Below are positions 32,629 to 62,598 of a stretch of 64,000 nt of DNA, one piece after another. The DNA is from Leucoraja ocellata. Its lineage: Eukaryota. Location: assembly GCA_036785375.1 (NCBI GenBank), contig JAWMAR010000028.1:2294001-2358000 (forward strand), in the 5' to 3' direction. Within the stretch, counting starts at the first letter, position 1. Every line of letters starts with the position of its first letter. Below the pieces are notes generated by a model. It saw only the letters and a program-made list of their open reading frames with translations. It searched no databases and was not told the origin of the DNA. The translations under genes were made by a program, and so were the position numbers.

Positions 32629-33012
32629 AATAAAAACAAATTTTTGAACTTCAGACATTTGGGGGGTCCTGTTCAATTGCAATCTTTTTCAATTGAAAAA
32701 TAAAATGATTTCCTTTTTACTTTGTGTTGAAGCTTGTTTTTTTTTTTTTTTCAAACGTTTGCTAACGGCATTCATACAAGTCCTTTGTTATACTTCTTTT
32801 CATATAAGTAGCTTGCAGGTTCACTGGATTAACCTTGTAGGAATTCTCTAAAATAGACAGAAATAAATGAAGATGAACACAGGCAATATTTAGTTTTAAA
32901 ACAAAACTGAGGGGTTGCTTCCTTCTACCATAGTGGAAAGGAGAGGAACTTAAAGCAATGTTGTAACCTTGAAATTTAGCTTGAGGTCCAACAATGACAA
33001 CAGATGAATAAA
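32629..33012 (+). terminator. Cluster of candidate TPR polyadenylation signals
   Basis: AATAAA at 32629, 32699, 32862 and 33007, with T-rich sequence following the proximal ones. Confidence 0.55.
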
Positions 33013-39500: not shown

Positions 39501-42500
39501 TGATGCGATCTTAATTCAAAGGTGGAATTGTAGATCCACATTTTCATAAGTTTAGGCTGCTGTTTTCATCCGCTTGCAATTCAGATATTTGTACTTCTGG
39601 TGAGCAACCATGTTACAGTTGGTTGTATGGATCAATTTAAATCGTAAACAGGTTGTCTGTGGTACTCTAAAGTTTGGATTGAATTGCCTGGGACGGTGTT
39701 TCAAGCACAATGTACAGCAACTTTCAGAAGATAATTGAATAAATAATTTCCAGTACCATGAGGAAAAGAACAGTGGGACACTTGTCCCACTATGTATAAA
39801 ATAAAAGCAGGAAGAAAGGGGTTTAAGAAATCTTGATTTGTTTTCTTGAGTAACTTCATGAGAAAGTATTCAATCTACCGCCATTTCACTTTTCAGCAAT
39901 TACAAACACTTTTGGTGTCAAGGTGGTTATTCCATTGACCAAGCAAAGGGGCAAAGAACCTTACCTTAAAAAAATATGTTTGTCCTTTGCAATTGCACCT
40001 TGTGAAGACGGTGTCTATTGGGGATGGAATACCCCACACATCGGTGATGCTACGAGGGTGGCCTAATGTTTGTCCTTGCTGGCTTATTGTCCAAAACAAA
40101 TTACCTGAAAAACATACAATTAAGCCATTTAGTGAATAGCTATGACAGAATGAAAGGATAACTGGTATGTTGGAATATTTCAGACCGTGGCACATACTTT
40201 GTAATTATTACCAGGCAAATGATCAGCGACTGACTGATCATCAGTGAGCATTTAATGCCATTACATTATTGCCAAAACAGTTGGATTAGGATTCCAATTG
40301 CCTTCACCCTGTATTATGCTGGAAAACATTCTGCAGCACCACCCAGTCCCCCGGGTTAATGCGTTTTCATTCTGGCAGGGGATGTGTTGTAACATTTCCA
40401 GCTCAACAGATATGCTCATTCTGACTGACATTAATGCCCCTGTCCCACTTAGGAAACCTGAATGGAAACAACTGGAGACTTTGCGCCCCACCCAAGGTTT
40501 CTGTGCAGTTCCCGGAGGTTGCAGGTGGTTGCAGGTAATGGAAGCAGGTAGGGAGACTGACAAAAACCTCCGGGAACCGCACGGAAACTTTGGGTGGGGC
40601 ACAATGTCTCCAGAGGTTTCCGCTCAGGTTTCCTAAGTGGGACAGGGGCATAACTCACTTTGGGTTAAAAATATGAGACATGCTTAAAATGTAAAATATT
40701 TGCGTGTGTTAAATTATCTTGAGATCAGACCATCTATTTTTAATCATGAGTGACATTGGACATTTGTCCAGAGTTGAGGCTCTGGCTCATTCTCAGAGGT
40801 AGGGCCAAACTGTAAATGAAACACTGATCACAATCAGACAGGGGCAGCAAATGCCAACCTCTCTCGATATAAAGAGAAATATTCAAAGCTTGACATTTAC
40901 GCACTTCCTAAATCTACAGTTTCTTTCATATCTTACCTCTAAAAATATACGTTGTTCCATTCTGTAGAGTTGTCGAAGCATCTGAAGGCTTCGTGTTACA
41001 CAAATTGGGATCGTTAAGACTGGCTAAAATGGTAATTTGAATAATTACTGAATTTTCAGAAACACAAAATCATCCACATTTCATAATTTAACATTTATTG
41101 AAACTTGTTATTTCACATTTAGTTATACACTTCACTAGCAAATTTATGCTTGTGCCATTCATCATCACATGGCATAGAAATGCAGTGAGTTACAGCAGGA
41201 TTGTTATACCATGCTAATGAAGAGGCTCTTTCCATAAAAGCATTCCAACCCTTTTTTTTGATGTTATTCCATAAATTATTATATTAACTGAATTGAATTT
41301 CATAACTTGTCATGGAGCAGTTTGAAATCAAGATGCAGGGGTTACATGCAGTGGCGGACTGGCCACGGTGTCAGCTTGCCCGAATGCAAGTGGGCCCCTG
41401 ATGAAGTGGGCCCCCTTTGTCTCCTGGCAACCAATATTTTTAGACCCAGTCCGCCACTGGTTACATGCCCTTACCCATTAGGTTACAGGAGCTTCATTTG
41501 TTCATGTGAAACAATCATTGAGTTGTGTGCATTATTACTTTTTTCTGTTCTTAGTTCAGACATAGATTCCCTCAATATTAACGATAATTCAGAGCAAGTA
41601 AATTGTATACCTTACCTTCATATGACTGCATTTTCTCAGTTGTTTGATTTTCTGGTTCAACTGATGGTAATGGAAATTTAGTTACCATGTTATCATTCTT
41701 AGCAGGGCCAGTGACCTATGAAATGAAAGACATTTAAGTTTGTTTTTGTAATGGAGGAGAGAGTTGTATTTTTGGTGCTTCAGTTTCCCCGACCTGTAAC
41801 GTTCTGTAGCACCAAACTGCATTTATATTGCATTGCCGCAATGATTGATTGGACCAAAATGATGTTTTTCAACTGGGCATAATTATGGTAGTGGAATAAT
41901 TCAGATTTACCTTTTATGAGTTACTTCATGTCAGATGAACCTATTTCAAACAGAGTTGTTGAAGGATGAAGTCATGCCCTTTCAATGAAAGGCACTCCAC
42001 TTCAAAAATAGATTCCGTTGCAAGAAAGAGTGGGGGTGAAGAAATACTTTGCGTTTCTCCTGCTGAAACCACATTAAGATGGCACACCCCTCATTGCTGA
42101 CAGTATTTTCCTGCTCTCTGGCCATGCAATGCCATAGATTACTGAATGGGGCCCTCTCTGGAGATGGAGGGGTGGGGAGTGTCAGCCTTGTTAATCCTAC
42201 TGAGAGAACCACCAGCACTTTCTGACTTGAGTATCTTCAATACTTGAGAGCTTACTTTACTGCCACAAGCATGCCTCATTTACAGATTTGTACTGGAAGC
42301 AGAAGGAATCATTTGTAAAATATATTATTTGGGAATTTTGGATAATGTTATTAAAAGTGAACTGAGTTCAACCTCTGAGGTGGACAATTGATTTACAAGG
42401 TTCTCTTCGTTTTAAATGTTTTTTTCCACTAACAAGCACAGACTTACCTAATCTGGATTTAAGATTTATTCTGCATTGTTTGATTTTGTATAGTTAAAAA

Positions 42501-45500
42501 TAAATGTGCACTTGTTTAGCTATACAAATTCTTAGAATTGACAGGCAGCATGGTTTTGTTTTTATTTACATTAAGATTTGTTACCTGTGTTTATCAGGAG
42601 CAATGGGCATTTCTCATTTTTAACTTTTGAATCTGTTGTCATTGATTCTTCTGTACCGGTCTTTACTTCTGTATTTATGTTAACATGTTCATAGCCACTG
42701 GTCTTTGCAAGATATTAACTTGCTATTTCCACTTTTTGTAGTATTGGATCTTGTGGCATAGCTTTTGCAGGTACAGTGGGTTGCAATATTCTCTCTTTAC
42801 CTAAATCTGAACCAGTAAAATAGTTTATACCGACCAGCAATCACCCATACACTAATTCTATCCTGTACACTAGGGACAATTTACAGAAGCCAATTAACCC
42901 ACAAACCTGCACGTGTTTGGAATGTTGGAGGAAACCAGAGTACTCAGGGAAAACCTACGCTGTCACAGGGAGAATGTACAAACTCCGTCCAGCCAGCAAC
43001 TGTAGTGAGGATCGAACCTGGGTCTCTGGCACTGTAAGGCAGCAACTCTACCATTGCGCCACTGTGCCACCCTAATATTGATGCTAGATTATCTGGGTTA
43101 TCAGGATTAATTACACAAATTACACAAAACAAAGTTTGGAGCAAAATGCTGCAAAAGTTTGTAATTTTTGTTCTTTGATCCTTCAAGATTAATTGATTTA
43201 CTTGGGTCTTCTCGCCACATATTTAGAAAATGAGGAACCATCATGAACTGTGACTATTGCCAATTCACCTTTATTTAAAATTTTAGAATCTGCGGTCTCA
43301 TCTCCAGTGACAGAGGTTGTAGTCGATCCTCTTTCCAATATGTTATATTCACTTAACCTTTTAGTTACCTTGTTATCTAAGACTTCATCATTGATAAATC
43401 CATCTTGAGGAACAGGGTACGCTGTCATTCCTTGACCCAGGATTTTAGAATTAGTAGGGCTATTCTTATTAATGGGAGATGTTGCCACTTCTTTATCCAA
43501 TATTTTTGACCCAATGATCCAATACTCAGGGACCTGATGCTCTGCAGATCCTTTATCCAAGATTTTAATATTGTTAAAACCATCGAAAGGAACAGAGTAC
43601 ACTACTGTTCCTTTATTCAAGACTGTAGAATCTGTGGAACTGCCTTTGCTAATGGAGGATGCTATCATTCCATTGCGGAAGGTTTTAGAATCTGTGGTCT
43701 TATCCTCCATTTCAGGAAACATTGGTGTTCCATTATCTATGGAATTACCTACGGATGTTGTCATTTCATCATCCAATATTTTAGAATCCATGTCACTATA
43801 TTTTTTAGGCGAGGCTGTCAGTTTTACTTTATCCAGGATTTTAAAACCTGCGGTCCAATTTTGGGGAGAACTAGACATCGCCATTTCTTTGGCCAAGACT
43901 TTAGAACCTGTGGTCCCATTTTCGGGAGAATCAGTCATTGCCATTTCTTTATCCAAAATCTTAGAATGAGTGGATCCATCTTCAGATGGAGAGGATATTG
44001 ATCTTTCCTTGGTCATGATTTGAGAAACTATTGTCTTAAATTCAGGAACGGGAGATGTTTTTATCTCTTTATCCAATATTATAGACTCTAAAGATGCATC
44101 TTCAGGAACAGCGGGCATTGGCATTGGCTTAGTTAAGATTTGAGAATTCTTTGTCCCGCCATCAGGAAAAGCTGTTGACACTCTTTCATCTGAAATATTT
44201 AAAACCATGGTCCTAATCTCATCACTGGTGGGTGTTGTCAGTCTGTTCTCTACGATATGAGGTACCATGTAAACATCTCCAGCGGCAGAGGAATGTGACA
44301 TTCCTTCATTGGATATATTGGAATGTATTTTCTCACCTTCAGAAATAGGTGTAATCAGTCCTGTGTCCAGAATTTTCAAATGCGTGGAATTAACTATGTT
44401 ACCAGAGGGTGTTGTCCTTTCTGCATCTCCACTTTTAAAATCCCTGGATGCATTGCAAGGAACAGAGGCTGTTGTCATTAATTTGTGCAGTAGTTTGGAA
44501 TGAGTGAAAGCAACTGATGGGACAAGGGATGTTGATTTTCCTTTATCAAAGATTTTAGAGTCTGTTGACCCATGTTCAATAATGGAGGGTACCATAATGA
44601 CTTTATCCACAATTTTAGAATGTATAATCCTATCTTCAGGAATGGCTGTCGTTCTGCTAACCACGATTTTGGATCCTGTGGTCCCATCTTCAGGAGTGGG
44701 TGATGTTGTCATTGTATTATGCAAGGTTTTAGAATCCATAGAAACATTTTTGTGAAAAGACGTTGTTGCCATTCCTTTATCCAAGGCTTTAAAATTGATG
44801 GATGGAACATCGGGAACAGAGAGAGTTGTCATTCCGTTATCCACTATTTTGGAAACTTCTGAAATATCTTCAATAACAGAGGACATGGGTCTTCCATTAT
44901 TCAAGAATTTGGTAACGATTGAACCATCTTCAGGAACAGTAGTTATTATTCCTTTATCCAATATATTAGTATTCATGGAAGACTCTTTTGGGATGATGTG
45001 TGTTGTTACTCCAGTATCGACGATTTTGGATTCTATCGAATCTTCAGGAACTAAATGCATGGTCTTATTTTTAGAAACAAAAGATGTTACTATTCCCGTG
45101 TCAAAGGATGTAGAATCTGTGGAACTATCATCATGAATGGGAGATGCTGTCAATTTGTTATCTAATAATTCAGAATCTGTATTCCTATATTCAGAAAATG
45201 TGGATAGTTCTCTTCCTATATTTAAGATTTTTGTAGCTCCAGTCCCATTTTCAAGAGTGTTGGATGTTGTATTGTTATTCAAGGTTTTTGAATCAATGGA
45301 TGCACCTTCAAGAACAGAGGGAGTTGTGATGTCTTTATCCAAGGATGTAAAATCTGTGGAAACTAAGGCCCCTGTTAGTTTGTCCGAGAGTTTAGAACTT
45401 GTGGAATCATTTTCAGAAACAGAGGGTGTTCCTTTACCCAATATGTCAGGATCTGCGGAAGTCTCTTTTGGCATGATGAACGTTGTCAGTTCCATATCTG

Positions 45501-48500
45501 ATAATTCCAAATATGCAGTTCCATCTTGAGCACCATCTTTAAGTGATCCTCTAGAATCTCTTGGCACCTTTTTCGTAACAAGAGGAGTTCCTGACATCTC
45601 TTTGTCCAAGAGTTTGGAAGACGGGGTCTGTTTTTCCTGATCAGGGGACATTGTTTTTCCTGTACTCCTGATTTTAAGATCTGTGGCTTCATGTAAAGGA
45701 ATTATGGTGGATTTATTTCCTTTATTTAAGATTATAGAATCTGTAGCAACATCTTTATTGTCTGGAGGAACTGACATTTGCTTGTCCAAGATTTTCTGAT
45801 CAGTGAAATTCTTTTCAGGAGCAATGGTTGATATTCCTTTCGGTAAGATTTTAGAATGCATGGTCCCATCTTCATGAACAGAAGAAGTTGTCTCTGCATT
45901 ATTCAAGATTTCTGAATCTGTGGAAGCATCTCCAGCAGTAGTGGGAGAAGCCAGTTTATTACCCAAGGCACGAGAAACTGTGATCCCAATTTCAGTAAAA
46001 GTGGCAGTCATTATTCTTTTGTTCGTGGTCCCATTATTGGGAATGCTAGATAATGTTATTACTTGATCCAACACCTTAGAATGCGAGAATCTATTTTCAG
46101 GATCAGTGGCATTTCCTGTTATCACATTGTGAGATCCAGGTATTGTTGTTATTTCTTTAACCAAGATTTTTGAATCGGTGGAATCACTTTTAGGAACAGC
46201 GGTGGTTATTCCTTTATCCAAGATGGTAGAATCCAAGAATCCATCTTCAGGATCAGTAGGAGTTGCTGTATTGTTAGTCAAGAATGTGGAAGTTGTGTTT
46301 GTATCCTTGGAAAATGATATAGTTATTTGATGAAACGTTGAAGGTTCTGAGAGAACAGATGGAGTTGTCATTCCATCAATCGGTATATTGGAGCTTCCAG
46401 AAGCCTTTTCAGAGATGGCATGTGTCGTCAATCCTGCCTCAAAGATTTTAGATTCCGTAGAAGTCTTTTTTCTGATGAAGGCTGTTGTCGTTGTTTTACC
46501 CACGATTTTAGTATCCGTGGTCACATCAACAGGAACAAAGGAATCTGTCATTTTGTTATTCAAGATTTTAGAGCCTGTGGAAATATCCACAGTGACTGAG
46601 GGCAACACATTCTTATTATTCCAGATTTCTGAGTTTATGGAATTGCGTTCAGGAACAATTGGTGTTGCTTGATTATTCAGCAGTTTGGAATCATCGGTCC
46701 TACCTTCAGGAGCCAAGAATGCTGTCCTTCCTTCATCTAGTACAGTAGGAACCGAGGAAGCTCTTTCAGGGGCAGATGATGTTGTTTTTTCCCTATCTGA
46801 GTCTGAAATTTTGGGTTCAATGGAAGCAACTTCCGTGATAAAGTCTGTGGCCATTCCTTTATCCAAGAGTAAATAATCTACAGATTCATTTTCAGGAACA
46901 GTGTTTGTAGGTCCGATTTTTGAATATGTTGTCCTATCTTGAGGATCAAGCGACATTGTTATTCCTTTACCCAAGATGCTTTGATCAGTTGAATCAACCT
47001 CAGGAACAGTGGATGTTATTCCATTATCTAAGATTTTAACATTTATGGTTGTATCTTCAGGAACCAAATTAGTCTTTGCATTATCCAAGATTTCTGAATC
47101 TGTGGAAGAATTCCAAATAACAGTGGGAATTGCCAGATTTTTACCAAGGGTATTTGAATCTGTGATCCCCATTTCAGCAGAAGGAGCAGCTGTTATTCCG
47201 TTATTCATGGACTCATTAAGTACATAAGATGTTGTTCTTAATTTATCCAAGATTATTGAATCCGTGAATCCATCTTTGGGATCAGAAGGGGTTGTTGTTT
47301 TGTTATCCAAGAATGCAAAATCCGTGTTTGCATCTTCAGGAAATGAGTATGATGTCGTTATTTTATAAAAGGCGTTAGAATCTGTGGTTTCAGTTTCTGG
47401 AACAGAGGATGTGATGTTTCTATTGTCCAAGACTTGTGAATCTGTAGAAGCAGTGACAGGAATAGTGGGAGTTGTTCTTTCATTAATTAAAACTCTGGGA
47501 TCCATGGATGTCTCTTCAAGGAAAGTGGGTGTTGTCATTTCTGACTCCACGATTTTTGTTCCTTCAGGAGCATCTTGTGGGATAGAGACTGTTTTTGTTA
47601 TTTTATCAAAGTTATCAGAATCGGTGGTTGCATCAACAGGAACAGAGGAATTTGCGATTATGGTATCCATGTATTTAGAACTTGTGGAAATGTCCTCAGT
47701 AGCTGAAGGCATTGTCTTTCCATTGCTCTCAATTTCTGAATCCATAAAATCATTTACAGGAATATTGGTTGCCACTTTATCCGGAATTTTAGAATTGTTA
47801 GTTCCATCTTCAGGAACAGAGAACGTTGTCATTTCTTTGTCAGATACACTTGGAACTGCTGAAGGCTCATTTGGGGCAGTGAATCTTGTTACTCCTGTGT
47901 CTGAAGTTTTAGGTTCCATGAAAGTAACTTCTGCGTCAGTGGCTGTTGGCATTCCCTTCTCCAAAAACATAGAATTAGTGGAGGCATCTTCATGAACAGT
48001 GTCTGTTGACTCCACTTTGGAATTTGTAGAACCTCCTTGAGTAATCGAGGTCATTGCCAACCCATTGTTCGTGATTTCTAAATCCATGGAATCATCATCA
48101 TCATCAGGAACAGTACTTGTTTTCATTCTTCCTTGCAACATTTTAGAATCCGTGGTCCCACTTTCAAAAACGCTGTATGTTGTCATTATGTTTTCCAAGA
48201 GTTTAGAATGTATCTTCTTATCTTGAAGTACTGAAGATGTAGTCATTACTGTTTCCAGAATTTTTGAATCTGTAAACCTGTCTTCATAGGTTGGTGTGAA
48301 TTCTTCACTTACGACTTTAGAATCCCTTGTCCCATCCACATGGTCAGAGAGTGTAGTCAATACTCGATTCAAGATTTCAGAATCAGTGGTTCCATCTTCA
48401 GGAATAGATGATGGTCTGCTCACAATATTGGAGATTTGAGAGTCATTTCGTCTACCATCGGTAACAATGGGCACTGTTGTTATTTTCAGAGACATCTTAG

Positions 48501-51500
48501 AATCCTTGGTAGTAGCTTGAGGAACAGAAGGAGTTGTCAGTCTGGTATCAATAATTTCAGAATATTTGGAATAATCTGCAGGAACAGAGGAAGTTGTATT
48601 TTTTTCATACCCGATTTTAAAACTAATGGAAGGGCCTTCAGTAACTGATCGTGCTGTTGTTCCATTGTCCATGATTTTTGAATCCATGGAATTGGTTTCA
48701 TAAATAGTAGTTGTTATATTTTCCAGGATTTTAAAATCATGTGTCCTACCTTTAGGAACAAGAAGTGTTGTTATTCCTTTATCCAATGTACTACTAGCTG
48801 AGGAAGCCTCTTTTAGGGCAGTGTGTGTTGTTAGAGGTGTATCTGAGGTTTTGATGCCTTGAGAGTGGCCTTCTGCAACAGAAAGTGATGTCTTCCCTGT
48901 ATCCAAAAATATAGCATCTATGGTGACATCTTCATGAAGAGGTGATGTTATTATTCTTTTATTCAAGACTGTTGAGTTTGTGAAAGCTTCTTCTGGATGA
49001 GTGGTTGCATTTATTCCTTTATCCGTGATGTTAGGTGATACAAGAACACTGTGCGTTGATGTAATGTTATTAATTTTAGAATCTGTGGTCCCAACTTCAG
49101 GAAGAGCTGTTGCAGTTATTGCGTTAGCCAGGATGTTTGAATCTGTGGAAGCATCTGCAGAGACATTGGGTGCTCCCAATTTTTTATCCAAAACATTAGA
49201 ATCTGTTATCCCATCCACAGAAAAAAATGCATTTGTTATTAAAGACCTTGTTATTCCTTTATCCAAAATGTTAGACTTTGTGGAAGCAGCTTCAGGAAAA
49301 GGGGAGGTCATCATTATTTTAGACTGTATTTTAGAACTTATGGTCTCATCTGCTGGAACCATGAGCATTGTCATTCCGTTAGACAAGATTGCAGAATCGG
49401 TAGAAGCATTGGCATGAGCAGAGAAATTTGCCACTCCACTCTTGAATATATTTGGACCTGTTGATGCTTCTTCAGGGACTGTATGCATTTTCATACCTGT
49501 ATCTAAGGTTTTAGATTCTGTGGAATTATTTTGTGGCATAAAGGCTGTTGTCCTTCCTTTATCGAGAATTTTTAAATCTGTGGACGCATCTGAGGGAACG
49601 GGGGATGTTTTTATTTTATTATCCAAGATTTTAGAACTCGTGGAAACATCTGTAATTGAGAGCATCATGGTACCATTGTTCAGGATTTCTAAACCCTTTG
49701 AACCACTTGCAGGAATAGTGGTTGTTATCTCTTTATCTAAGTTTGTCGATTTACTGGTCACATCTTCAGGAATGGAGCGTGTTGTCATTTCTTTGCTTAG
49801 TTTATCGGGATCTGAAGAAGAACCTTCTGCGACAATGCGAGTTGTCATACCGGTGACTGAGATTTCAAAATCTACACTCCCATCTTGAGGAACAGTGTTC
49901 ATTGTCATTCCATTAATCATGAGTTGAGAATCTGTCCTCTTATACTCAGGAAGTTTAGACCATGATGGTATTCTATACAGGATTCCTGAATCCGTCATCA
50001 CTTCTCCTAGACTTGGGGTAGCCGTAGGTGTCACAGTTTTATATAACATTTTAGATTCCATGATCTCGTTTTCAGGAACAGAAGGAGCTGCCAATCCATT
50101 GTCCAAGAGTTTTAAATGAATGGAAGCATCTTCAGAAAGTGGTGTTGTCAATTCCTGATCCAAGATTTTGGAATATCTGATCCCATCGGCAGGAAAAGTA
50201 GAAGTTGTTATTTTATGTAAGGTTTTAGAATCAGTGGCCTCGCCTGCCGAAACAGGGAGCAATGTAATTCCATCATCTAAGATTCTTGAACTTGTTGAAG
50301 CATCTACAGGGAAATAAGTTGTTTTTCTATTATCCAAGATATCAGAACCCATTGAGGTCGCTACAGTGACAAGGTGTGTCTGCATTCCTGTACTCATGAT
50401 GTTATCATTCATAAACTCACCTTCTGGAACACCAAGGGTCGTCACTTTGCTTACCAAGGTTTTAGAATGCGTATTCCCACCTTCAAGATCAGATGGTGTG
50501 GCCATTCTTGTGTCCAAGATTTTAGAATCTGTGAAACTATCTTTATTAGCAAAAGGTGTTGTCAATCCTTCATCAAAACTTTTCACATCCCTGGACTTAT
50601 CCTCGGGACCAGAGAGCGTTGTCAACACTTTAAGCATGATTTCAGGATCCCTGGTCCTATCCTCTGGGAATGTGGAAGATGTCATTATTTTATACAATAT
50701 TTTAGACGCTGTGGTCTCACCTAACGGAACAGAAAGCAACGTAATTCCTTTATCCGAGAATCTAGCACCCATAGAAGCAACTGCAGGAGGGGCAGAGGTT
50801 GTAACTCTACTCTCTGATATTCTAGAACCAGCAAAAATCTCTTCAGGGTCAGTATTTGCTGGCATTCCCTTGTTCAAGATTTTGGAATCTGTGGAAGCAA
50901 ATTCTGGGATAGAAGTTGCTGTTGTTCTTTTATCCAGGATTTTAGAATTTGCGGAACGATCTACGGGAACTGAAGGAGTTGTCATTCTATTATATAGAGT
51001 TCTAGTACTTGTGGAAGTATCCTCAGAAATTGAGGGCACGGATATCCTATGGTTTGGGAGTTTTGAAATGAAGGAATCACTTTCAGGAACAGTTGTTATT
51101 TCCTTATCTAGTGTTTTAGAATAATTGGTCAAATCTTTAGGAGTGGAGGGTGTTGTAATTCTTCTATCCAATATACTTGGAACTGAGGAAATCTCTTCTG
51201 GGAGAGTATGTGTTATTATTCGTGTGCCTGAGATTTTAGATTCTATGGAAGCAACCTCTGTGCTCAAGGATGTTGTCATTCCTTTATCCAAAAACATAGA
51301 ATCTGTCGTTCCATGTTTAGAAACAACTGATATTGTTACTCTTTTACTCAAGATTTTTGAATTCATGGATGCTTCATCAGGAAGAGTGTTTTTTCCCATT
51401 CCTTCATCCAATCTTTTACGATCAGTGGATCTATCGCCAGAAACACTGTACATTGTCATTTTGTTATCCCAGGCTTTAGAATACATCCTCCCATCTTCAA

Positions 51501-54500
51501 GAGAAGATGTGGTCATTTCTTTCTCTGAGAGTTTATAATCTGTGAAACTATCTGCGTTAGCAAAGGGCGTTGTCAATCCTCGTCCTAAGATCTTAATGTA
51601 CCTGGTCCCATCCTTAGACATGGAAGATGTACTCATTAAATTATCAAGGATTTTAGAATGTTCGGTCCTACCCTTGGGGATGAAGGGTGTCGTCACCACT
51701 TTATCCAAGATTTTAGGATCCCTGGTCCTATCCTCAGGAAATGGGGAAGATGTCAACATTTTATACAATATTTTGGATGCTGTTGTCTCACCTACCGGAA
51801 CAGAAAGCGATGCCATTCCCTTATCCGAGATTCTAGTATCCTTGGAAACAGCTGCAGAAGGAGCAGCAGTTGACATTCCATTCGCCGATATTCTAGAACC
51901 ATTTGCTGTCATTTCCTTGTCCAAGATTTTGGAAACATCTTTTGGCACGATGGTTGGTGTTCCTTTATTCTCGCTTTCGGATTTGTTAGAATGATCCACA
52001 GGAACCGAGGGATCATTACTCAGGGGTTCGGACCTCTTGGAAGCATCTTTGGTGGCCGTGGGCACTGTCATCCTATTGTTTGGGATTTTTGAATTGAGGA
52101 AATCACTTTCAGGAGCAGCTGTCAATTCTTTATCTAGGATTTTGGAATCATTGGGCCCGTCTTCAGGGGTGGGATAAGTTGTCATTCCTCTATCCAATGC
52201 ACCAGGAACAGTTGTTGTTGTTGCCGTTGTTTCTTTAACTAAGATATTTGAATTTGTGGAAGCGACCTCAGGAACATTGGTTGTTTTCAATCTTTTATCC
52301 AGGATTTGGGGATCTGTGGAGCTATTTTCAGGAACGACAGGATCGTCTTTGTCGTTTTTAAATTTGATGGGATCTACGGTGGTCAATCCTTCAATTTCTT
52401 TAGCTGTTTCAGTTTCTGTAAGAGTAAGTTTTGATAAATCAGAAAAACTGATAATTCACTAACAAGCCATCTTCATTTCTTATGCACATACTCATGGTCA
52501 GCTATCAATTAATTACCTGACAATGGAAACATCACGCTGATTTTGAGCAACGTCACAAGGTAATTTTCCTATTTATCCTAATTAATCATGGTAGCCAACA
52601 ACTCCATGTTCAGTTAACATAGTCCTTTGCTAATATCTTATTCTGGGAAGTGTTGTTGCACAGTTTCACATTATTCAAAATTTTCTTTGAAATTTCTGTG
52701 GATCTTATTCCTGACAGATGCCTCAATAGTCCCTACCTTTGCACTTGGATTTTCTATGTGTTTGCCTCTAATGGATCCCACGTATTTAGTGAGGACCATG
52801 TGTCTGTACATCATTAATGTTGACTGTAATCCAGAAATTAGAGCTGTCTGTTCTGTCCACTAAGACTTCTGGTTCAAGGGGGATTCCAATTCTAGTCTCT
52901 CTGGCAAAGCTGTTCTTCCTCAAACTAATTTAATTTAATGTGTGATTCTTAAAGCTCATCCATTACTTTTGTGTCCCCTTTAACTATTGCCAGAACATTT
53001 GTTAACATATCAATCATTTCACCATAGACTGTGGATTTCTACAGTTGGGTTTCAATCATTTCATTAATACATTGTGAATTTCTCCCCAGTCTAATGATCC
53101 ATGGTCTTTGGCCTTCCATTAAAACGTTCTTCTTGTCATGTAAGTTAAGGAGTTCATGCATGCTGATAAATAGCATGTATTATTATTATTATTGTTGTTC
53201 TGAAGCATAAAGCAGTTAGCAGCCTAGAATCTGCACACAGAATCTGACTGCACTTGGTGCAGTATAAATATTACATTTGACGATGGTGCTAATTTAAAAA
53301 GGTTTTGACACATGGCTGACTCGCACACTATTGAGCATATCACAATTTGTTAGAAGAAAACTGTTTCATACTTGGCTTCAAGGGTCCTTCCTTGATTTTT
53401 CCATTATCATTCAAATGGTTGGCAGAATCTTGTTGGAGCAGTGTATCACTGATTATCTCAGCTTGGCCTGCTGTTGGTTTCTTTGTGAAGCTGGTGACTG
53501 GTAAAGGTGACCTTGTAGTAGCTACAATCGTGGGACTTTTTTGGATGTCTACGATAAAAAATTAGTTCAGAGTGAATAATCACAATTTATTTCTAATGTT
53601 TACAGTTCATGTTTTTTTGTAATTGTAATGCAGTTTGTGCCAGCAATAGAACACAAGAGAACAGCATGGACTAGAAATTGATATTGGGCACTTAAAGCAT
53701 GCTCAAAAATTCTTGTATGGCATATCAATAAATATTTAATTCTGGATTTTCCATAGTAGGCAGGTCTAGTGCTGGGGAACCTAAATACAGCAAGGAATGA
53801 GGATGGCTGTTAATGGAGGCCGGAAGGTGGGGTGGTTAGAGAAAGAAATGTTTGTGTTTGGACACAGGTCAATGCCAGAGTGTTGGGGAGGGAAGTGGGG
53901 GAGGATCGAGAGAACATCAGACCTCTGGGGAAAATGGTGGCCAGAGTTCTCGACGGGTAGTCACAATCACGTTTATCTTTGGGGAAAAAAAGCAATTTCA
54001 GATGTGTAACTCTAATGAAAACAAAGCTACACATCCAAACTTGTTACGTTACATGCAGCTGACAACATTAGTGAGAGACCTGTATAGAGGTGAGGTGAAA
54101 TGAATCTTAACAAAATTATTACTTCAAATGCAAATTTATAACTGAAATGCTATAATGGGAACTTCACAGTTTTTAAATGCATTAGGCAGGTGGAAGTCAA
54201 ATGGCTACTTTTCATCTAGATCTTTCAAATTGCAAAATAAATAGTGAAGGTTCTGATTTTTATTTTAGTGATTTACGATTTGATTGAAGATAAATTACAG
54301 CTCCAGATGTTAATAATTCAATTAGGTGTCAGCAATTTAAACAATGTTTTATGTTACTATTCTGTGTTAGTTCTCTTGCAGGAGAAACTCCAAGCAAATT
54401 TCTCATGGAAAGTTTCCTAGCTGCCTTCAGAAATGCAAAGGACCAATGCTGATTGAAGTATCAATATAACATAAGCTAGATTTTTCTTAGGTTTTTAACA

Positions 54501-57353
54501 TATTACGGTCCGAGTCATCAAACATTGTAATGATTAACTTCAGCTAAAATGTTATCTTGCGTAACCCACCGAGAAAATGTGAAAAAAACCGTAAGACATG
54601 CACCCACAGCTTGGCAGCCTTATTGTACCTTCTTCACAGTTTGCAGCAAAATCAGCACAGCAATCACTGTATTTCACACAGATGGGATCACACTGGCATT
54701 TCCGTCCTCGTTGGTGCTTCTCATAGCAGCGTCCAGAACAGGAGGTTTCTGTACAAAGAACAGGTTTTGGTATGAACATAGAAATTAGGTGCAGAAGTAG
54801 GCCATTCGGCCCTTCAAGCCAGCACCGCCATTCATTATAATCACGGCTGATCATCCAAAATCAGTACCCCGTTCCTGCTTTCCACCTCATATCCCTTGAT
54901 TCCTTTAGCCCTCAGAACTATATCTAACTCTCTTTCGAATACATCAAGCAAAGTACAAGGTCACCTTGTTGACTGGACTAGAGAACATGGTGGAGTACTG
55001 AGCAAGGTAACTCGGTAACATCTCATATGTAGGAAGGAACTGCAGATGCTGATTTACACCAAAGATAGACACAAAATGCTGGATTAACTCAGCGGGACAG
55101 GCAGCATATATGGATAGATAGAATGGGAGACGTTTCGAAACGTCACCCATTCCTTCTATCCAGGGATGATGCCTGTCCTGCTGAGTTACTCCAGCATTTG
55201 GTGTCTATCTTCAGTAACATCTCAGCTGGAATAGTTTTGAAAATGGAGGATGAATATGGCTATAGCCCTCTGCTTTGTGTGCACACACAATTACATTACA
55301 TTTTCCCTATACACACCTGCCTTTCAGCAACATGCAGAGACATAAGAATAACCAATAAACTGAGATACACAAGTGTGTAATTTGGGGTTGGTTATCAAGA
55401 TGAGCCTTTGCATCCTGCAGATTATGAAATAACATGACAATAAAATACAGCACTTAATTACATGTATATCCATTAAACGAGAACAAATGTAGTTACTTTT
55501 GGAATTTATATATCCCACTCAGGTTTTTTGTTAGTTTGAAATCAGAATGCAAGATTTTATCTTTGAATTGGCAGAGATCTGTTTCCTGGACAGGTACTCT
55601 CCAGAGGTTAATAAATGTTTTAACAAGTGGGCCGAGATGTTTAACTATTGCTGTTTACCTGATGTACAGATATCTCTGTAATCTTCGCAGCATTCATCAT
55701 AACGAATACATTCGATGTCACAGTTGCAAACGTGGCCTCGCTCGTACCTGGGAACACATCTCCCTATACAGCTGTCTTCATTTTAGGGGGAAAAAAACAC
55801 AAAAGTAAGTGAAGCATCCAAACACAGAGATCTACTTACTTTACTGAGACGGATTCGCCGATATCAATCACAAAATTGCATATTAATAATTTATTTTTCG
55901 TTTTTTTTTAAGCCATTTTCCAGATTTGAATGTATTAATAATGAAGTGGGGGAATGTGTGCTGCGCCCTTCACTGAAGCACTTCACTGGACTCTTGCGTT
56001 GGGGGCTGCAGGTGTCATCCCACCTGTTCAATGGAGAACGAAGCTGGGCTTGTAGAGAGGGGAGTGGAGTGGAGTGGGGTGGAGGGGCAAGATAAGGTAG
56101 CGCGGCCCGGGGGAGAGGGAGAGGTGAGAACAGCGGGCTCCTGGTGAGGGGAAACAGTGGGGGCTCCGGGGAGATGTTAGCGGAGTAATGGTGGGGAGGG
56201 GTGTGAAATAGAGGGGCTCAGGGAGCAAGTGAGAGTGCGAGGGAGAGGCACCGGGTCTCCGGGGTTGGTGTGTGGAGGGGAGATAGCAGGAGTTCAGGGA
56301 AGCGGGGATAGCGGGGCTCTGGCGGAGAGTAGTGTGTGGGGAGATAGCGGAGCCCCTGGAGGGAGTGGGGCCGGGGAAGGGTTGGGAAGGACTGGCAGCG
56401 GGTTACGGTCGGAGCGCGGAGATGGGGGGAGACAGCGGGGCTCCGAGCGAGGGGTGGGGGAGAAGTGTTGGCGGGGAATGGAGGGGGAGACAGATGGGCT
56501 TTGAGGGAATGCCCGAACAGTATATGCACTGAGACTGCCAGGGCACGACACTAGCACTTTGAGGCAACGCCAGTGGAATGTTGACGCTGCACCAGGCTTG
56601 TGTGTGAGAGAGAGTGCGCTTCAGGCTTGTGACTGAGACGTGGGGCAGAAAACACACAGAATTTGGTATTTTCTTTCAATTCATGTAATTGGGAAAAAAC
56701 TGACTTTCCAAAGTAAGCAAAGGCCTGAAGGGAGAAATTTGGGTTGAGAAAGGGCGAGGAGAGAAGCGATTGGGAACGTGGATCTGTCTACATCTGTCGT
56801 GGAGGAGAGGTGGGTGGAAGATTGCAACCTTCACGTGGTCCGCCCTGTTTCAACTAATGCAATCAACTCGACGTGCACAAACGGAAGATCAAATAGAACA
56901 AGTTGTCCAACAACATTAGGCTGTGCACGCCACACGAAATAAGAAGAAGAAGTGGAGGAGAGGTAAGGGTTAAAGTGATAACAGAGTAAGGGGCGGGAGG
57001 GCAAGCAACTGGAAAGATGACTGAGAAGTAATGAAGTTTGAAATGAACTCACGGAATGCAGTGAGTGAATAAGGACAAACGACTGAAGTAAAGGATTCCA
57101 ATGCAGACCCATGCACCCCTAGTGGGGTTAGGGTAGATGAGAATTGTAACTAACTTTTAACTTTTGTTTAAACAGAACAACACAAGACAACTGTAGCATA
57201 AGTGCTCCGCTGACCTCGACACCATGCAATTATCAAAGTTATTGAAGCTATTTAGTCATTAATGTTATTTCATTTCCAGCACTTACCTTGAGTTGCGATC
57301 ATTTCTGGCAAGGTCACGGAGGATACAATTAAAAGAATGGTTTGCCATTTCAT
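33506..57353 (-). CDS. PRG4: Proteoglycan 4 / lubricin (signal peptide, 2x somatomedin B, giant mucin-like repeat region, hemopexin domain); about 3,470 aa
   Basis: SMB-SMB-mucin-PEX exon order; VWGIPSPIDTVFTRCNC motif; tail-to-tail with TPR as in human. Confidence 0.94.
33810..34910 (+). mobile_element. CR1 3' fragment with nested V-SINE
   Basis: ISKFADDIKVGG; YRALVRPQLQYC..W.P..ERVQRRFMRML; CR1-type 3' tail. Confidence 0.85.
34291..34540 (-). mobile_element. V-SINE nested in CR1
   Basis: gtttagtttggagatacagcacggaaacaggccc tail; V-domain. Confidence 0.85.
35005..35272 (-). mobile_element. Penelope-derived element with hammerhead core
   Basis: 14-bp TSD taacatatctctca (34991-35004 / 35273-86); on -: CTGAAGAagggtttcggcccGAAACGTT. 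Confidence 0.72.
35401..35526 (-). CDS. PRG4: PRG4 exon: KLSVEMSIRNNWTGIPMRITSTISLPNPRIAEKYEYYVLSH
   Basis: tttcag|TT ... G|gtaagt; 126 nt; cf. human WRGLPNVVTSAISLPN...YDYYAFSK. Confidence 0.9.
36283..36432 (-). CDS. PRG4: PRG4 exon with proprotein-convertase-like site: GVYQKYVYQK...RHRYRRQ...QQNI
   Basis: ttacag|GT ... G|gtactg; 150 nt, phase 1-1; cf. human GGSIQQYIYKQ...RRRRFER. Confidence 0.85.
36501..36780 (-). mobile_element. V-SINE (HE1-like)
   Basis: Same family sequence as the other copies. Confidence 0.85.
37291..37447 (-). CDS. PRG4: PRG4 hemopexin exon: DQDYWRFQNGAMDSGYPQKI...PETVYFFKR
   Basis: tgcag|GAT ... G|gttact; 157 nt, phase 0-1. Confidence 0.94.
38212..39091 (+). mobile_element. 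CpG-rich non-autonomous retroposon with (TTGTA)n tail
   Basis: Abrupt GC/CpG-rich island in an AT-rich intron, ending tgacaataaa-(ttgta)n. Confidence 0.6.
39219..39374 (+). mobile_element. Penelope-derived element with hammerhead core
   Basis: 12-bp TSD catatttacagg (39207-18 / 39375-86); CTGAAGAagggtctcgacccGAAACGTC. Confidence 0.72.
39965..40104 (-). CDS. PRG4: PRG4 hemopexin exon: NLFW...ITDVWGIPSPIDTVFTRCNCKGQTYFFK
   Basis: tttcag|GT ... AAG|gtaagg; 140 nt; diagnostic PRG4 motif. Confidence 0.96.
40435..40650. mobile_element. Palindromic MITE, PIF/Harbinger-like
   Basis: TAA TSD (40432-34 / 40651-53); TIR tgcccctgtcccacttaggaaacctga; arms about 90 bp. Confidence 0.85.
40937..41023 (-). 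CDS. PRG4: PRG4 hemopexin-domain start: SLNDPNLCNTKPSDASTTLQNGTTYIFR
   Basis: tttag|CC ... G|gtaaga; 87 nt; cf. human NICNGKPVDGLTTLRNGTLVAFRG. Confidence 0.92.
41349..41459. mobile_element. 111-bp hAT-type MITE
   Basis: 8-bp TSD gttacatg; 14-bp TIR cagtggcggactgg / ccagtccgccactg. Confidence 0.88.
41616..41660 (-). CDS. PRG4: PRG4 short exon EPENQTTEKMQSYE (a longer phase-0 version from 41715 is also open)
   Basis: tttccattaccatcag|TT ... GAAG|gtaagg; 45 nt, phase 1-1. Confidence 0.55.
42828..43072 (-). mobile_element. V-SINE, tail-truncated
   Basis: gggtggcacagtggcgcaatggtagag head, B-box, V-domain. Confidence 0.85.
43269..52415 (-). CDS. PRG4: PRG4 giant mucin-like repeat exon (9,147 nt, about 3,050 aa)
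   Basis: cttacag|AA at 52415 is in frame with the 3062-aa ORF; donor AAAG|gtgaat at 43269 gives phase 1-1; no internal stop. Confidence 0.88.
43270..52330 (-). repeat. Coding tandem repeat, 60-bp / 20-aa unit, about 150 diverged copies
   Basis: Motifs such as tttagaat/tttggaat/tctaga recur at the same column of the 60-nt lines (e.g. 50461-51001); peptide unit SKILDKGMTTxSVPEDxSTD. Confidence 0.9.
53372..53548 (-). CDS. PRG4: PRG4 linker exon: IQKSPTIVATTRSPLPVTSFTKKP...GPLKP
   Basis: tttatcgtag|AC ... A|gtatga; 177 nt open, phase 1-1, S/T/P/K-rich. Confidence 0.75.
54629..54748 (-). CDS. PRG4: PRG4 somatomedin-B domain 2: TSCSGRCYEKHQRGRKCQCDPICVKYSDCCADFAANCEE
   Basis: 8-Cys SMB pattern; tacag|AA ... 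G|gtacaa; 120 nt, phase 1-1. Confidence 0.93.
54776..54945 (-). mobile_element. CR1 3'-end fragment next to the SMB2 acceptor
   Basis: Reverse complement of the tail at 62450-62600 (gaatggcggtgctggc...cctact). Confidence 0.75.
55026..55213. mobile_element. Inverted (head-to-head) pair of the same Penelope-derived element
   Basis: 11-bp TSD gtaacatctca; central palindrome gacgtttcgaaacgtc at 55129-55144; imperfect arms about 75 bp. Confidence 0.75.
55659..55775 (-). CDS. PRG4: PRG4 somatomedin-B domain 1: SCIGRCVPRYERGHVCNCDIECIRYDECCEDYRDICTS
   Basis: 8-Cys SMB pattern; gaag|AC ... G|gtaaac; 117 nt, phase 1-1. Confidence 0.92.
56040..56500. repeat. G-rich degenerate minisatellite / low-complexity tract
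   Basis: About 9 variants of gagatagcggggctcc separated by G/A-rich spacers; strong G skew on +. Confidence 0.65.
56812..56951 (+). mobile_element. Short retroposon with (AAG)n tail
   Basis: 13-bp TSD gtggaggagaggt; second copy at 58351-58481. Confidence 0.75.
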
Positions 57354-57380
57354 GAAATTTTGAGGATTGGCCATCACCAT
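57287..57380 (-). CDS. PRG4: PRG4 signal-peptide exon: (MVMANPQNF)MKWQTILLIVSSVTLPEMIATQ
   Basis: aaacag|ATG ... CAAG|gtaagt; in-frame ATGs at 57380, 57374 and 57353; MKWQT resembles human MAWKT. Confidence 0.82.
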
Positions 57381-61260: not shown

Positions 61261-61856
61261 AGATTTGATTTGTCAAATTTTTAAACCTATTGCCATTTGT
61301 GCAGACAAAATGCAATACCCGGCCAAAGAAAGCAAATATTCTCAATAAATATTGGGAAATAAGTTTATTAAAAACATTCTTGTGGTTTTCAGTGAGGCTG
61401 ATATTTTGAATGTTGTTGAAAATGGTTTTAACCCGCCGATTACACATCAAGTCCCACTTGTGTGCCAAATATGTTGCAATTCATATCCGCATTAGAAGAA
61501 AACATATGCTCGATAAGAAAATGTCTGGAGCAAAATGATCAGAGAGGCAAACACATTACTTTATTGCAGAAGGATTCAACTGAGCTTTAAATGATAATGG
61601 TCTGGCTGGGAAAAGCCAACATAGTTTACAAATGGGGGACTGGCTGCTCAAGTGTAGGCTGGAGAATGTGCGGCACATAGATATGTACTGGTATTAGAGG
61701 TTTGCAAGTGGTTCGGGTGATTAAGAAGAGACTTTGGTGGGCATTGGTAAATAAGGCCGTTTAATATAAGAACAGTAGTGCGAGTAGTCAGTATCATTAG
61801 TGTTAGCTGCTGTGTGGAAACATTGACGCAGAGATTATACCTGATAATAACTGGAA

Positions 61857-62598
61857 GGCAGATTATTATCTAAATGGTGTCAAGTTGGGGAAAGGGGAAG
61901 TACAACGGGATCTGGGGTCCTTGTTCATCAGTCAATGAAAGTAAGCATGCAGGTACAGCAGGCAGTGAAGAAAGCGAATGGCATGTTGGCCTTCATAACA
62001 AGAGGAGTTGAGTATAGGAGCAAAGAGGTCCTTCTGGAGTTGTATAGGGCCCTAGTGAGACCACGCATGGAGCATTGTTTGCAGTTTTGGTTTCCAAATT
62101 TGAGAAAGGACATTCTTGCTATTGAGGGAGTGCAGCGTAGGTTGACAAGGTTAATTCCCGGGATGGCAGGATTGTCATATGCTGAGAGAATGAGGTGGCT
62201 GGGCTTGTATACTCTGGAATTTAAAAGGATGAGAGGGAATCTTATTGATACATATAATATTATTAAGGGTTTGGACACGCTAGAGGCAGGAAACATGTTC
62301 CCGGTGTTGGGTGAGTCCAGTACCAGGGGTCACAGTTTAAGAATAAGGGATAAGCCATTTAGAACGGAGATGAGAAAACACTTTTTCACACAGAGAGTTG
62401 TGAGTCTGTGGAATTTTCTGCCTCAGAGGGCGGTGGAGGCCGGTTCTCTGGATACTTTCAAGAGGGAGCTAGATAGGGCTCTTAAAGATAGCGGTCAGGG
62501 GATATGGGGAGAAGGCAGGAATGGGGTACTGATTGTGGATTATAAGCCATGATCACATTGAATGGCGGTGCTGGCCTACTCCTGCACCTATTGTCTAT
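61857..62598 (+). mobile_element. CR1/HER1-like LINE 3' end, 5'-truncated and relatively intact
   Basis: 205-aa ORF KKANGMLAFITRG...LYRALVRP...TRGH; close match to 7829-8040; (ctattgt)n tail. Confidence 0.92.

Follow-up and report, generated by a model that had tools for sequence, protein, structure and literature searches.

Mammalian PRG4, the gene for lubricin, has a Ser/Thr-rich exon of very large size and codes for a signal peptide, a pair of somatomedin-B domains and a hemopexin-like end (PMC13218872); its repeat unit is KEPAPTTP (PMC11092771). The human mucin domain spans residues 232-1085 (PMC11925169), and human PRG4 isoforms are described that skip small exons and keep this domain. 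In mouse, one gene produces a long mucin form (Prg4-L) and a short one in which mucin is scant or missing (Prg4-S), the choice depending on context, with Prg4-S lacking the mucin exon and dominating in fracture callus (10.1101/2025.09.15.676417). The locus described here is no new kind of system: databases already hold giant shark and frog models, and the PRG4 gene and the two mouse isoforms are likewise on record. For cartilaginous fishes, a 2025 paper (PMC11864516) raised lubricin expression in synovial-like joints as an open question, and a study of skate joints mentions Prg4 in its introduction only (PMC11856278). A literature search found no description of chondrichthyan PRG4 structure, and the terms prg4, proteoglycan 4 and lubricin gave 0 matches in 8 supplement files of PMC13188829.

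We analyzed a 64,000-nt stretch of the Leucoraja ocellata genome (the window), which contains the PRG4 gene of a skate. Its hemopexin exon is 100% identical to the Leucoraja erinacea model, 98% identical to the Amblyraja radiata model, and 78-100% identical to 10 proteins annotated as proteoglycan 4, 4b or 4-like. The architecture is that of known lubricins, with two N-terminal somatomedin-B domains (PF01033 above cut-off in both exons) plus a hemopexin-like domain at the C-terminus (PF00045 above cut-off in 2 exons); Pfam matches fall in 4 of the 9 translated exons, and the somatomedin-B and hemopexin exons flank the repeat exon. The N-terminus is hydrophobic and resembles annotated PRG4 models, and it may hold a signal peptide. 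The central Ser/Thr/Pro-rich region (S+T+P 32%) lies on one large exon, with 206 aa backed by RNA and the remainder predicted. The resulting full skate gene model is as follows.

57287..57380, minus strand: first coding exon of PRG4, with start codon and predicted signal peptide (GT-AG boundaries; 86-88% to the N-terminus of skate PRG4 models)
55659..55775, minus strand: somatomedin-B exon 1 (PF01033, E 7.5e-11; past 54751, RNA contig X22 has a loose end that reads this exon)
54629..54748, minus strand: somatomedin-B exon 2 (PF01033, E 5.6e-12; X22 joint 54629-53548)
53372..53548, minus strand: linker exon (X22 joints on both sides; 95% to NCBI skate models P0001 and P0002)
51796..52415, minus strand: repeat exon, short form, 620 nt, phase 1 in and phase 0 out, ~206 aa (X22 and one X14 read at the acceptor; X22 exit at 51794-51796 to the 41715 exon, an exit shared by P0001 and P0002)
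43369..51795, minus strand: distal extension of the repeat exon, 8,427 nt or 2,809 codons, spliced out as intron from the short form and predicted coding in the long form (no stop; frame kept in X4 and X6)
43201..43368, minus strand: last 56 open codons past the predicted donor, containing candidate donor 43269 (GT>GA at 43269 in X4 and X6; 2-nt insertion in X6)
42830..43076, unstranded: interspersed repeat, which we take to be SINE-like, within the old 3' end of the exon (5 further copies in the window at 70-81% identity; deep read pile in 4/4 RNA runs)
42570..42819, minus strand: decayed remnant, likely the end of a shark-type repeat exon (one in-frame stop in the first 81 codons; alignment to Heptranchias PRG4)
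41616..41715, minus strand: small exon following the repeat, phase 0 in and phase 1 out (X22 loose end 41713-41684; translation present in P0001-P0003)
40937..41023, minus strand: hemopexin-region exon (boundaries; in frame within the joined model)
39965..40104, minus strand: hemopexin exon (PF00045, E 8.1e-6)
37291..37447, minus strand: hemopexin exon (PF00045, E 3.5e-7)
36283..36432, minus strand: C-terminal exon with a furin-like RYRR site (94-98% to P0001 and P0002)
35401..35526, minus strand: C-terminal exon (95% to P0001)
32762..32847, minus strand: last coding exon including the stop (89% to P0001; stop in frame)

The gene produces a short splice form that encodes 657 aa across the junction 51796-41715. 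X22, from a related skate and the only spliced RNA contig found across the gene, joins 54629 to 53548 and 53372 to 52415 with ends CT..AC, and then exits the repeat frame at 51794-51796 into the exon starting at 41715, in phase 0. One raw read (X14) also joins acceptor 52415 to 53372, and NCBI models of two skates (P0001, P0002) likewise exit after 620 nt, from donor 51796 to acceptor 41715. An initial RNA comparison of 4 raw runs (1-25% of each), which were dominated by interspersed-repeat reads, held no PRG4 splice among the 15 joints listed, with 743 further joints beyond these.

A sequence-only reading of the window had instead envisaged one constitutive exon of 9,147 nt, spliced in phase 1-1 from donor 43269 to acceptor 41660 and built independently in this lineage, and had named a transcript using only a small part of the exon as the observation that would speak against it. 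Such a transcript is what the RNA contains, using 620 nt and a phase-0 junction. The proposed 5' boundary (acceptor 52415, joined to 53372) is upheld by RNA, but the 3' boundary is not, since the RNA leaves at 51796 and enters at 41715 in phase 0, an exon inside which 41660 falls. In the window genome the GT at 43268 is intact (score 4.8), and its join to 41660 would give an open 3,482-aa protein; however, the donor reads GA in both relatives compared (43267 A>T on the plus strand), and a join from 43269 to 41715 shifts the frame and soon meets a stop. Because the GA version restores the repeat's own residues, the intact GT is probably a recent change. With the repeat unit common to sharks as well, we regard this model as refuted in its constitutive or general form and as highly improbable overall.

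The frame itself, as that reading held, is very large. The minus strand runs without a stop from 52455 to 43201 (3,085 codons); no other frame in the window exceeds 268 codons, and across 51795-43369 each of the other five frames has 44-335 stops. The top autocorrelation peak lies at 20 aa, or 60 bp (0.208 vs. a median of 0.075 for amino acids; 0.452 vs. 0.258 for DNA), and a gapless 20-aa profile finds 132 units (mean of 0.35 in 20 shuffles), spaced by exactly 20 residues in 90 of 131 intervals. The unit consensus is STDSKILDKGMTTSSVPEDA, with a mean pairwise identity among units of 25%. A diverged 60-bp repeat in a skate PRG4, unlike the mammalian one, had thus been described correctly, although the claimed count of ~150 units was simply the length divided by 20. 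The mammalian octapeptide repeat KEPAPTTP is not found, with KEPAP and PAPT each occurring 0 times in the 3,048 aa of the repeat exon, which is built on a degenerate 20-mer. The composition is 26.5% S+T, 5.9% P and 25% I/L/V/M/F, net acidic, with 43 N-glycosylation sequons; so many large hydrophobic residues with so little proline are unlike a typical mucin.

Pfam places no family on the repeat exon, nor on 5 other long frames (two antisense to the exon). Tandem Repeats Finder reports one 140-bp piece of the array only, among 21 rows, being blind to most of the array because its units are too diverged. A DNA search of the skate's own genome with 1.5 kb of the repeat returned 4 matches, all inside the exon, a result that says nothing on rarity. 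Recent expansion of the array can be ruled out as the cause of the open frame by the low unit identity and by best internal DNA matches of 65-72%, and an assembly artefact is ruled out by a single X6 contig that is collinear across the whole frame.

Comparison with other lubricins contradicts the proposed independent origin: the unit core occurs at least 3 times in 11 of the 164 proteins compared, and all 11 are shark, skate or ray PRG4 models. Shark models carry 1,100-3,000 aa of related repeat ahead of the same V-T-type junction as in skate, with 10-41 core matches each (shuffle means <2), but differ in having a period of 21 rather than 20, an extra interspersed module and a retained exon tail that is decayed in skate. 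Nor is the size unique. Shark models measure 3,222 aa (Chiloscyllium GCC29771.1), 2,248 aa (Scyliorhinus GCB68180.1), 1,657 aa (Carcharodon), 1,382 aa (Rhincodon) and 1,054 aa (Heptranchias), the two giants among them being automatic predictions named 'hypothetical protein'. Frog PRG4 (Xenopus, 2,500-2,685 aa; Hyla sarda, 3,578-3,927 aa) shares the domain order and is comparable to or longer than the predicted skate form, yet has 0-1 matches to the skate core and other periods (64-65 in Hyla), and frog PRG4 gave no match to the skate exon after composition correction (E 4 or worse). The predicted skate repeat region (3,015 aa) compares with ~850 aa in human.

A link to chimaeras is suggestive only: the Callorhinchus fragment V9KQB6, with its 21-aa period, outscores 200/200 shuffles against 4/4 shark repeats, but does so against Hyla as well, and outscores 198/200 shuffles against the skate exon. 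A whole-exon homology search for proteins of 1,676-5,334 aa matched 0 of 7,998 candidates scored; since the shark relatives of 3,222 aa and 2,248 aa escaped it too, it carries little weight.

All 6 skate and ray models read are short (523-855 aa). Five NCBI models (XP_055498138.1, XP_032884076.1, XP_078263972.1, XP_059840485.1 and XP_069794287.1) share the gene and the unit, and the first two share the short junction, but at 619-855 aa none includes the distal 2,800 codons. For Leucoraja, isoform X2 is the record compared, isoform X1 lying outside the set. Current skate models thus probably omit ~80% of the longest product.

The gene likely also yields an unannotated giant form of ~3,500 aa, because the distal 8.4 kb keeps its reading frame in related skates. 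In X4 (organism B), which covers the distal part in two contigs with gap letters fully accounted for, 3/3 indels within 43369-51795 are multiples of three (15, 24 and 3 nt), whereas 2,036 nt of intron compared alongside hold at least 4 that are not (at 53981, 54083 and 54250, and a 47-nt jump near 54140), with gap totals requiring a fifth. The probability that all 5 frame-breaking events land in the intron share by chance is 2.8e-4 (1.4e-3 for 4 events). In X6 (organism C), a single contig spans the frame; its net change is +53 nt, or +51 once the +2 beyond both distal donors is set aside. Both relatives carry a further 141-nt in-frame insert at 52203-52209. On the window's own branch we count 0 stops, vs. 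~5 expected for half of ~314 substitutions (P ~0.005). Among the X4 and X6 differences listed (40 of 596 substitutions and 12 of 51 indels), the distal part has 27 changed codons, all within 43464-44286, of which 11 are synonymous, 16 non-synonymous and 0 stops (distal dN/dS ~0.5, p = 0.05); stops or compensating shifts may exist beyond those listed. Distal codon-position composition agrees with that of the RNA-proven short exon, and the skate frame just past the short donor (51663-50149) resembles coding sequence of a Narcine model (38% over 508 columns). Judged from these sequence patterns, the distal 8.4 kb appears to be coding sequence under purifying selection, as the sequence-only reading had argued from its open frame.

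These data bear directly on whether the distal 8.4 kb might be a dead or dying relic of a shark-type exon, its frame still undecayed in skates that make the short form only. Substitutions are as dense within the frame as in an intron-rich piece (X6, 349/9,075 vs. 77/1,939; X4, 246/9,092 vs. 42/1,941), so residue constraint is weak; the RNA shows the short junction only, skate and ray annotations are short, and the sequence immediately downstream has already decayed. Against a relic stand the 0 frame-breaking indels over 8,427 nt in X4 compared with at least 4-5 in the intron, the net in-frame length change in X6, the missing stops and the dN/dS value, and decay that begins abruptly where the frame ends. 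We find a relic very unlikely.

Our preferred reading is that nested 5' donors in the PRG4 repeat exon give the 657-aa form and a predicted 3,466-aa form, to which we assign a probability of about 0.66. When the 173 phase-0 GT sites in the frame were scored with a donor matrix, the best two were 43369 (5.1) and the RNA-proven 51796 (3.8). The candidate at 43369 (AAG|GTAACT, phase 0) lies at 98% of the frame length, has no change among the X6 differences listed, and on joining to 41715 yields a single open 3,466-aa protein. In 0/8 runs does a read or contig contain a junction at 43369 or another distal donor. Distal raw reads occur at trace level in 5 raw RNA runs (X13, depth at most 0.51; X16, at most 0.25; X14, one read) and may come from pre-mRNA. 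No X22 contig falls in the distal part, contigs being able to show presence only, and the absence of a listed RNA record for the 9,147-nt stretch was not weighed as evidence. The giant form proposed earlier survives as a predicted alternative isoform with another 3' end.

The frame stays open for 56 codons beyond 43369, which could also mean that the long form is left unspliced, reading through to the stop after 43201 with intronic polyadenylation to give a 3,241-aa secreted mucin that has somatomedin-B domains and no hemopexin end. These codons hold 3 synonymous and 3 non-synonymous changes and 0 stops among the differences listed, AATAAA occurs at 42566 and 42470, and the 2-nt insertion in X6, placed between 43206 and 43214 from the distance-to-end column, would alter the last 4-5 residues only. 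We nevertheless hold read-through to be unlikely: the best of the phase-0 donors sits near the frame end and brings the hemopexin part back in frame, the hemopexin end is retained in the 3 long shark models that have a full tail, and 56 open codons are no more than the decayed remnant downstream shows. That remnant aligns to residues 692-746 of Heptranchias PRG4, directly before the hemopexin region (score 80; 200 shuffles, 36±6, maximum 55), with a marginal alignment to Carcharodon (62; shuffle maximum 64) and the other 6 of 8 proteins not above shuffles. An in-frame stop speaks against reading 42806-42585 as an extra exon, and the stretch is better taken as part of the remnant.

The exon might also be used piecemeal, with several internal donors or acceptors giving a ladder of lengths, an arrangement that could coexist with nested donors. 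The third phase-0 donor, at 50455, scores 3.6 and would yield 1,104 aa; ray models stop at other copies of the skate-type unit, ahead of the tail the whale-shark model agrees with just the first ~980 aa of the bamboo-shark model, and Hypanus is annotated in two lengths (523 and 779 aa). Selection on the frame extends to its far end, however, so some product must contain that end, and no further phase-0 donor above 1.1 lies between 50455 and 43369; piecemeal use accordingly strikes us as quite improbable.

With nested donors, the repeat exon would be cut either at the internal donor after 620 nt or at the second in-phase donor, whose predicted junction would add the distal frame, likely translated given the selection on it, for ~3,000 repeat residues in total. 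Its position and score, together with no change listed there in X6, suggest that the long form would end at 43369 and keep the hemopexin end. Exons 5-7 are left out entirely in mouse, whereas in skate a single exon would be shortened, with ~10 units retained. Donor choice may depend on tissue, with the long form made in joints or other sliding surfaces. By analogy with known lubricin, the long form would be secreted, anchored to surfaces through its somatomedin-B and hemopexin ends, and O-glycosylated on Ser/Thr into a bottle-brush ~3.5 times as long as the human mucin domain, and the role of the short form may be closer to that of a small signalling or matrix protein, on the model proposed for mouse Prg4-S. 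Historically, an ancestral shark-type exon may have been ~800 bp longer; in skates a nearer donor would have replaced the old one, after which the old end decayed and took up the interspersed repeat.

More speculatively, and with the odds rather against it, a lubricin chemistry peculiar to cartilaginous fishes, based on an acidic repeat of 20-21 residues, may date back to the shark-chimaera split, with skates tuning the brush ~15-fold (206 vs. 3,015 residues) by nested donors and a 3,466-aa joint giant missed by annotation. If so, very long brushes, as in shark, skate and frog lubricins of 2,200-3,900 aa, would be recurrent or ancestral in aquatic jawed vertebrates, and the mammalian form short and derived. 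Vertebrates have remade the lubricin mucin domain in various units and lengths between unchanged ends, a point relevant to the requirements of a boundary lubricant. Isoform-specific targets (junction 51796-41715 vs. 43369-41715; distal probes and peptides) make the joint-expression question testable in a laboratory skate.

Finally, the hemopexin exon at 37291..37447 finds one 100% match and two 46-52% matches in its own genome among 14 candidates scored. Beyond the gene's 3' end, the last plus-strand exon of the neighboring gene lies at 32514-32569, and a PF07926 match occurs on the plus strand 2.1-2.3 kb left of the window; we take this exon to be the end of TPR, whose tail-to-tail (convergent) position next to PRG4 is a known feature of the mammalian arrangement.

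Exon content and neighbourhood identify the minus-strand gene in this window as PRG4. The repeat exon is preceded by a start exon, a pair of somatomedin-B exons and one linker exon, and followed by one small exon and then six hemopexin-region exons. Compared with proteoglycan-4 models, one of the hemopexin exons matches that of Leucoraja erinacea at 100% and that of Amblyraja radiata at 98% identity (10 matches among 28 candidates), which marks the source as a skate; a search of its own 3.44-Gb genome with this exon gave a single full match and two others at 46-52%. A PF07926 match (TPR domain) lies on the plus strand ~2 kb left of the window, and we take the neighbouring plus-strand gene to be TPR:

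32514-32569, plus strand: last exon of the neighbouring gene (TPR)
32762-32847, minus strand: last PRG4 coding exon

The stop codons of the two genes are ~190 nt apart in a tail-to-tail layout, which is that of mammals. The sequence-only reading had correctly named the gene as PRG4 and the lineage as probably a skate or ray.

Its ~9-kb stop-free frame of a 20-residue repeat is likewise real: minus strand 52455-43201 holds 3,085 codons without a stop, against at most 268 codons in every other frame of the window, and its translation is a degenerate repeat array with a period of 20 aa (60 bp) by autocorrelation peaks. With a gapless profile we counted 132 units (0.35 in shuffles) of consensus STDSKILDKGMTTSSVPEDA, whose mean identity to one another is only 25%, so the array is old. 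The frame's translation contains no KEPAP motif, in keeping with the claim of a repeat unlike the mammalian KEPAPTT type, and there is a single Cys in the whole open frame. The 3,015-aa long exon comprises 26.5% S+T, 5.9% P, 13.7% D+E, 10.0% K+R and 25% I/L/V/M/F, with 43 N-glycosylation sequons.

Splicing out of this frame is observed much earlier than had been proposed. Skate and ray PRG4 models (n = 6) span 523-855 aa, and those of Amblyraja and Leucoraja track the window's frame for ~206 codons, then jump to sequence beginning at 41715. An RNA contig from organism D (X22; 7 differences in 526 nt from the window, its RNA type guessed by the tool, though spliced with CT..AC ends) carries the joints 54629-53548 and 53372-52415 and exits at 51794-51796, its loose end being identical to 41713-41684. 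The short isoform, a 657-aa product whose junction is seen in this contig, is therefore both transcribed and annotated. Acceptor 52415 of the originally proposed 9.1-kb exon holds, as it is joined in this RNA, but its 3' boundary does not: the proposed donor 43269 is GT in this genome and GA in both relatives with DNA compared (runs X4 and X6), the true acceptor, reached from 51796, lies 55 nt upstream of the proposed 41660, and joining 43269 to 41715 gives a frameshift. A transcript using only a small part of the exon, an outcome named beforehand as refuting the proposal, is seen in this contig, which leaves the frame after the short exon, and this tells against a constitutive giant exon. Within that exon, at 52203-52209, X4 and X6 each carry an insertion of 141 bases (47 codons), to which a stretch in the Rhinoraja model is similar; absent from the window and from the Leucoraja and Amblyraja models, it is a lineage marker. 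Leucoraja isoform X2 (P0002) shows a frame change relative to the window at residues 643-671, in the second-last exon, probably an assembly or model error.

A long form requires a phase-0 donor, because acceptor 41715 must be reached in frame. Among 173 phase-0 GT sites in frame, scored with a donor frequency matrix, 43369 ranks first and the RNA-proven 51796 second; no change at 43369 is listed for X6. The computed 43369-41715 join predicts 3,466 aa (~376 kDa before glycans), a probable giant isoform lying within sequence that is annotated as intron. No read shows a junction at 43369 in five raw RNA runs (1-25% of each read, with frame coverage at trace level); the trace reads over the frame are mostly in the orientation expected for PRG4, one of them, from raw run X14, near 43450-43600. 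It is possible that the long form instead reads through to the stop after the frame, giving 3,241 aa without the hemopexin end. A long transcript must also ignore the AATAAA hexamers of the distal region 51795-43201, ten in number, and its many donor-like sites in phase 1 (top score 8.0 at 50421).

Whether spliced at 43369 or read through, the distal 8.4 kb bears marks of selection. X4 and X6 cover the whole frame at ~3-4% divergence. The X4 indels in 43369-51795 are of 15, 24 and 3 nt, all multiples of three and fully accounted for, as listed indels sum to the gap totals; the short exon has paired -1 and +1 shifts together with indels of 9 nt and 141 nt, which are net in frame, and the contig breaks at 48091-48106 within a trinucleotide run. 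In the same comparison, 2,036 nt of intron show at least four frame-breaking indels, with gap totals needing a fifth (chance of such a split, P = 2.8e-4 for five events, 1.4e-3 for four). X6 has a net length change of +53 nt, +2 of these at 43206-43214, beyond both distal donors; its other indels are known as a net sum, in which compensating shifts could hide. Given the observed substitution spectrum, ~3.3% of changes would create a stop, and the window's own branch has 0 against ~5 expected (P ~0.005). The distal part shows 27 altered codons (from 40 of 596 substitution rows, minus 2 located past the stop), of which 11 are synonymous changes and 0 are stops (dN/dS ~0.5, p = 0.05). Purifying selection on the frame, as first suggested, is thus upheld. 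Against this, substitutions are no sparser here than in introns, a pattern that would fit selection acting more on length and composition than on sequence.

Directly after the frame, an interspersed repeat (42830-43076; five further copies in the window) interrupts the sequence, and beyond it lies a stop-bearing remnant that can be aligned with the last part of the repeat region in Heptranchias (a clear match for one of eight proteins, marginal for a second). Decay is therefore seen where selection has ceased and nowhere across the 8.4 kb. The insertion probably sits where the ancestral exon had its last coding stretch, and may have triggered, or come after, the shift to a nearer donor. Since the frame is kept in relatives, lacks stops and decays only past its end, translation of the distal part in at least one isoform is very likely.

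By sequence comparison, the repeat unit is not a skate invention, because a 9-residue core profile recurs at least three times in 11 of 164 proteins, all shark, skate or ray PRG4 models; independent origin in this lineage is accordingly not borne out. Two short elasmobranch models and two chimaera fragments have fewer than three matches. Shark repeats have a period of 21, whereas the skate period is 20. One chimaera fragment, whose repeat has a period of 21 aa and a unit of similar appearance, is only suggestive of a link, in a shuffle control that a frog protein passed too. Nor is the size unique, given models of 2,248-3,927 aa in sharks and frogs. A search with a shark hemopexin region among proteins of 2,420-5,000 aa (7 matches in 152 candidates) returned one Chiloscyllium model of 3,222 aa, one Xenopus tropicalis model of 2,685 aa and five isoforms from Hyla (3,578-3,927 aa); a Scyliorhinus model of 2,248 aa and a Xenopus laevis model of 2,500 aa came from a representative-protein search, among its best 150 of 1,500 matches. 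These lengths come from automatic models, on which ancestral and recurrent states are not separable. Human lubricin is ~1,400 aa. Frog repeats, unlike those of sharks, have no unit in common with the skate array; the frog models (P0013-P0018, P0034; 2,500-3,927 aa) have their own repeats, of period 64-65 in Hyla, and no paper on them was found in the literature searched. Between the whale-shark model (P0009) and the bamboo-shark model (P0012), the match covers just the initial ~980 aa of the latter, after which the whale-shark model jumps to the tail exon; sharks may use internal donors too, or one model may be incomplete.

In lubricin, end domains anchor and a heavily O-glycosylated central brush lubricates (PMC13218872, PMC11925169), and the KEPAPTTP unit is described as conserved across mammals (PMC11092771). 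By analogy, the brush of the long skate form would be ~3.5 times as long as the mucin domain in humans, whereas the short form might be a small protein of the matrix or of signalling, comparable to mouse Prg4-S, which predominates in fracture callus (bioRxiv 10.1101/2025.09.15.676417); Prg4-S lacks exons 5-7, whereas the skate short form keeps 620 nt of the repeat exon. Zebrafish prg4b is required for jaw and fin joint maintenance (PMC4951194) and lamprey prg4 showed expression only in ventral aorta (PMC10161429). Full-text searches of literature mostly outside the subscription journals found no description of PRG4 structure, repeat or isoforms in cartilaginous fish. Work on synovial joints in skates mentions Prg4 a single time, as part of the introduction (PMC11856278), while the accompanying Primer counts the expression of lubricin in joints of cartilaginous fishes among the open questions (PMC11864516), and in PMC7217701 Prg4 appears in a reference only. 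The gene, the annotated short isoform and comparable lengths are already on record; the probable giant isoform is the hidden part, and the skate gene model makes this joint-evolution question directly testable. Overall, the sequence-only reading was confirmed in part as observation (frame, unit and gene) and supported in part as interpretation, its 3' end and independent origin having failed and its size not being unique.

Past the stop codon of PRG4, AATAAA first occurs on the minus strand at 31725; its 3' UTR therefore probably extends over the final exon or exons of TPR. Three other stretches, 154-233 codons long, lack both stops and Pfam matches; they lie at 5044-5610 (minus), 38372-38833 (minus) and 61851-62549 (plus), the latter two within an intron or upstream of PRG4 and repeat-derived in appearance.
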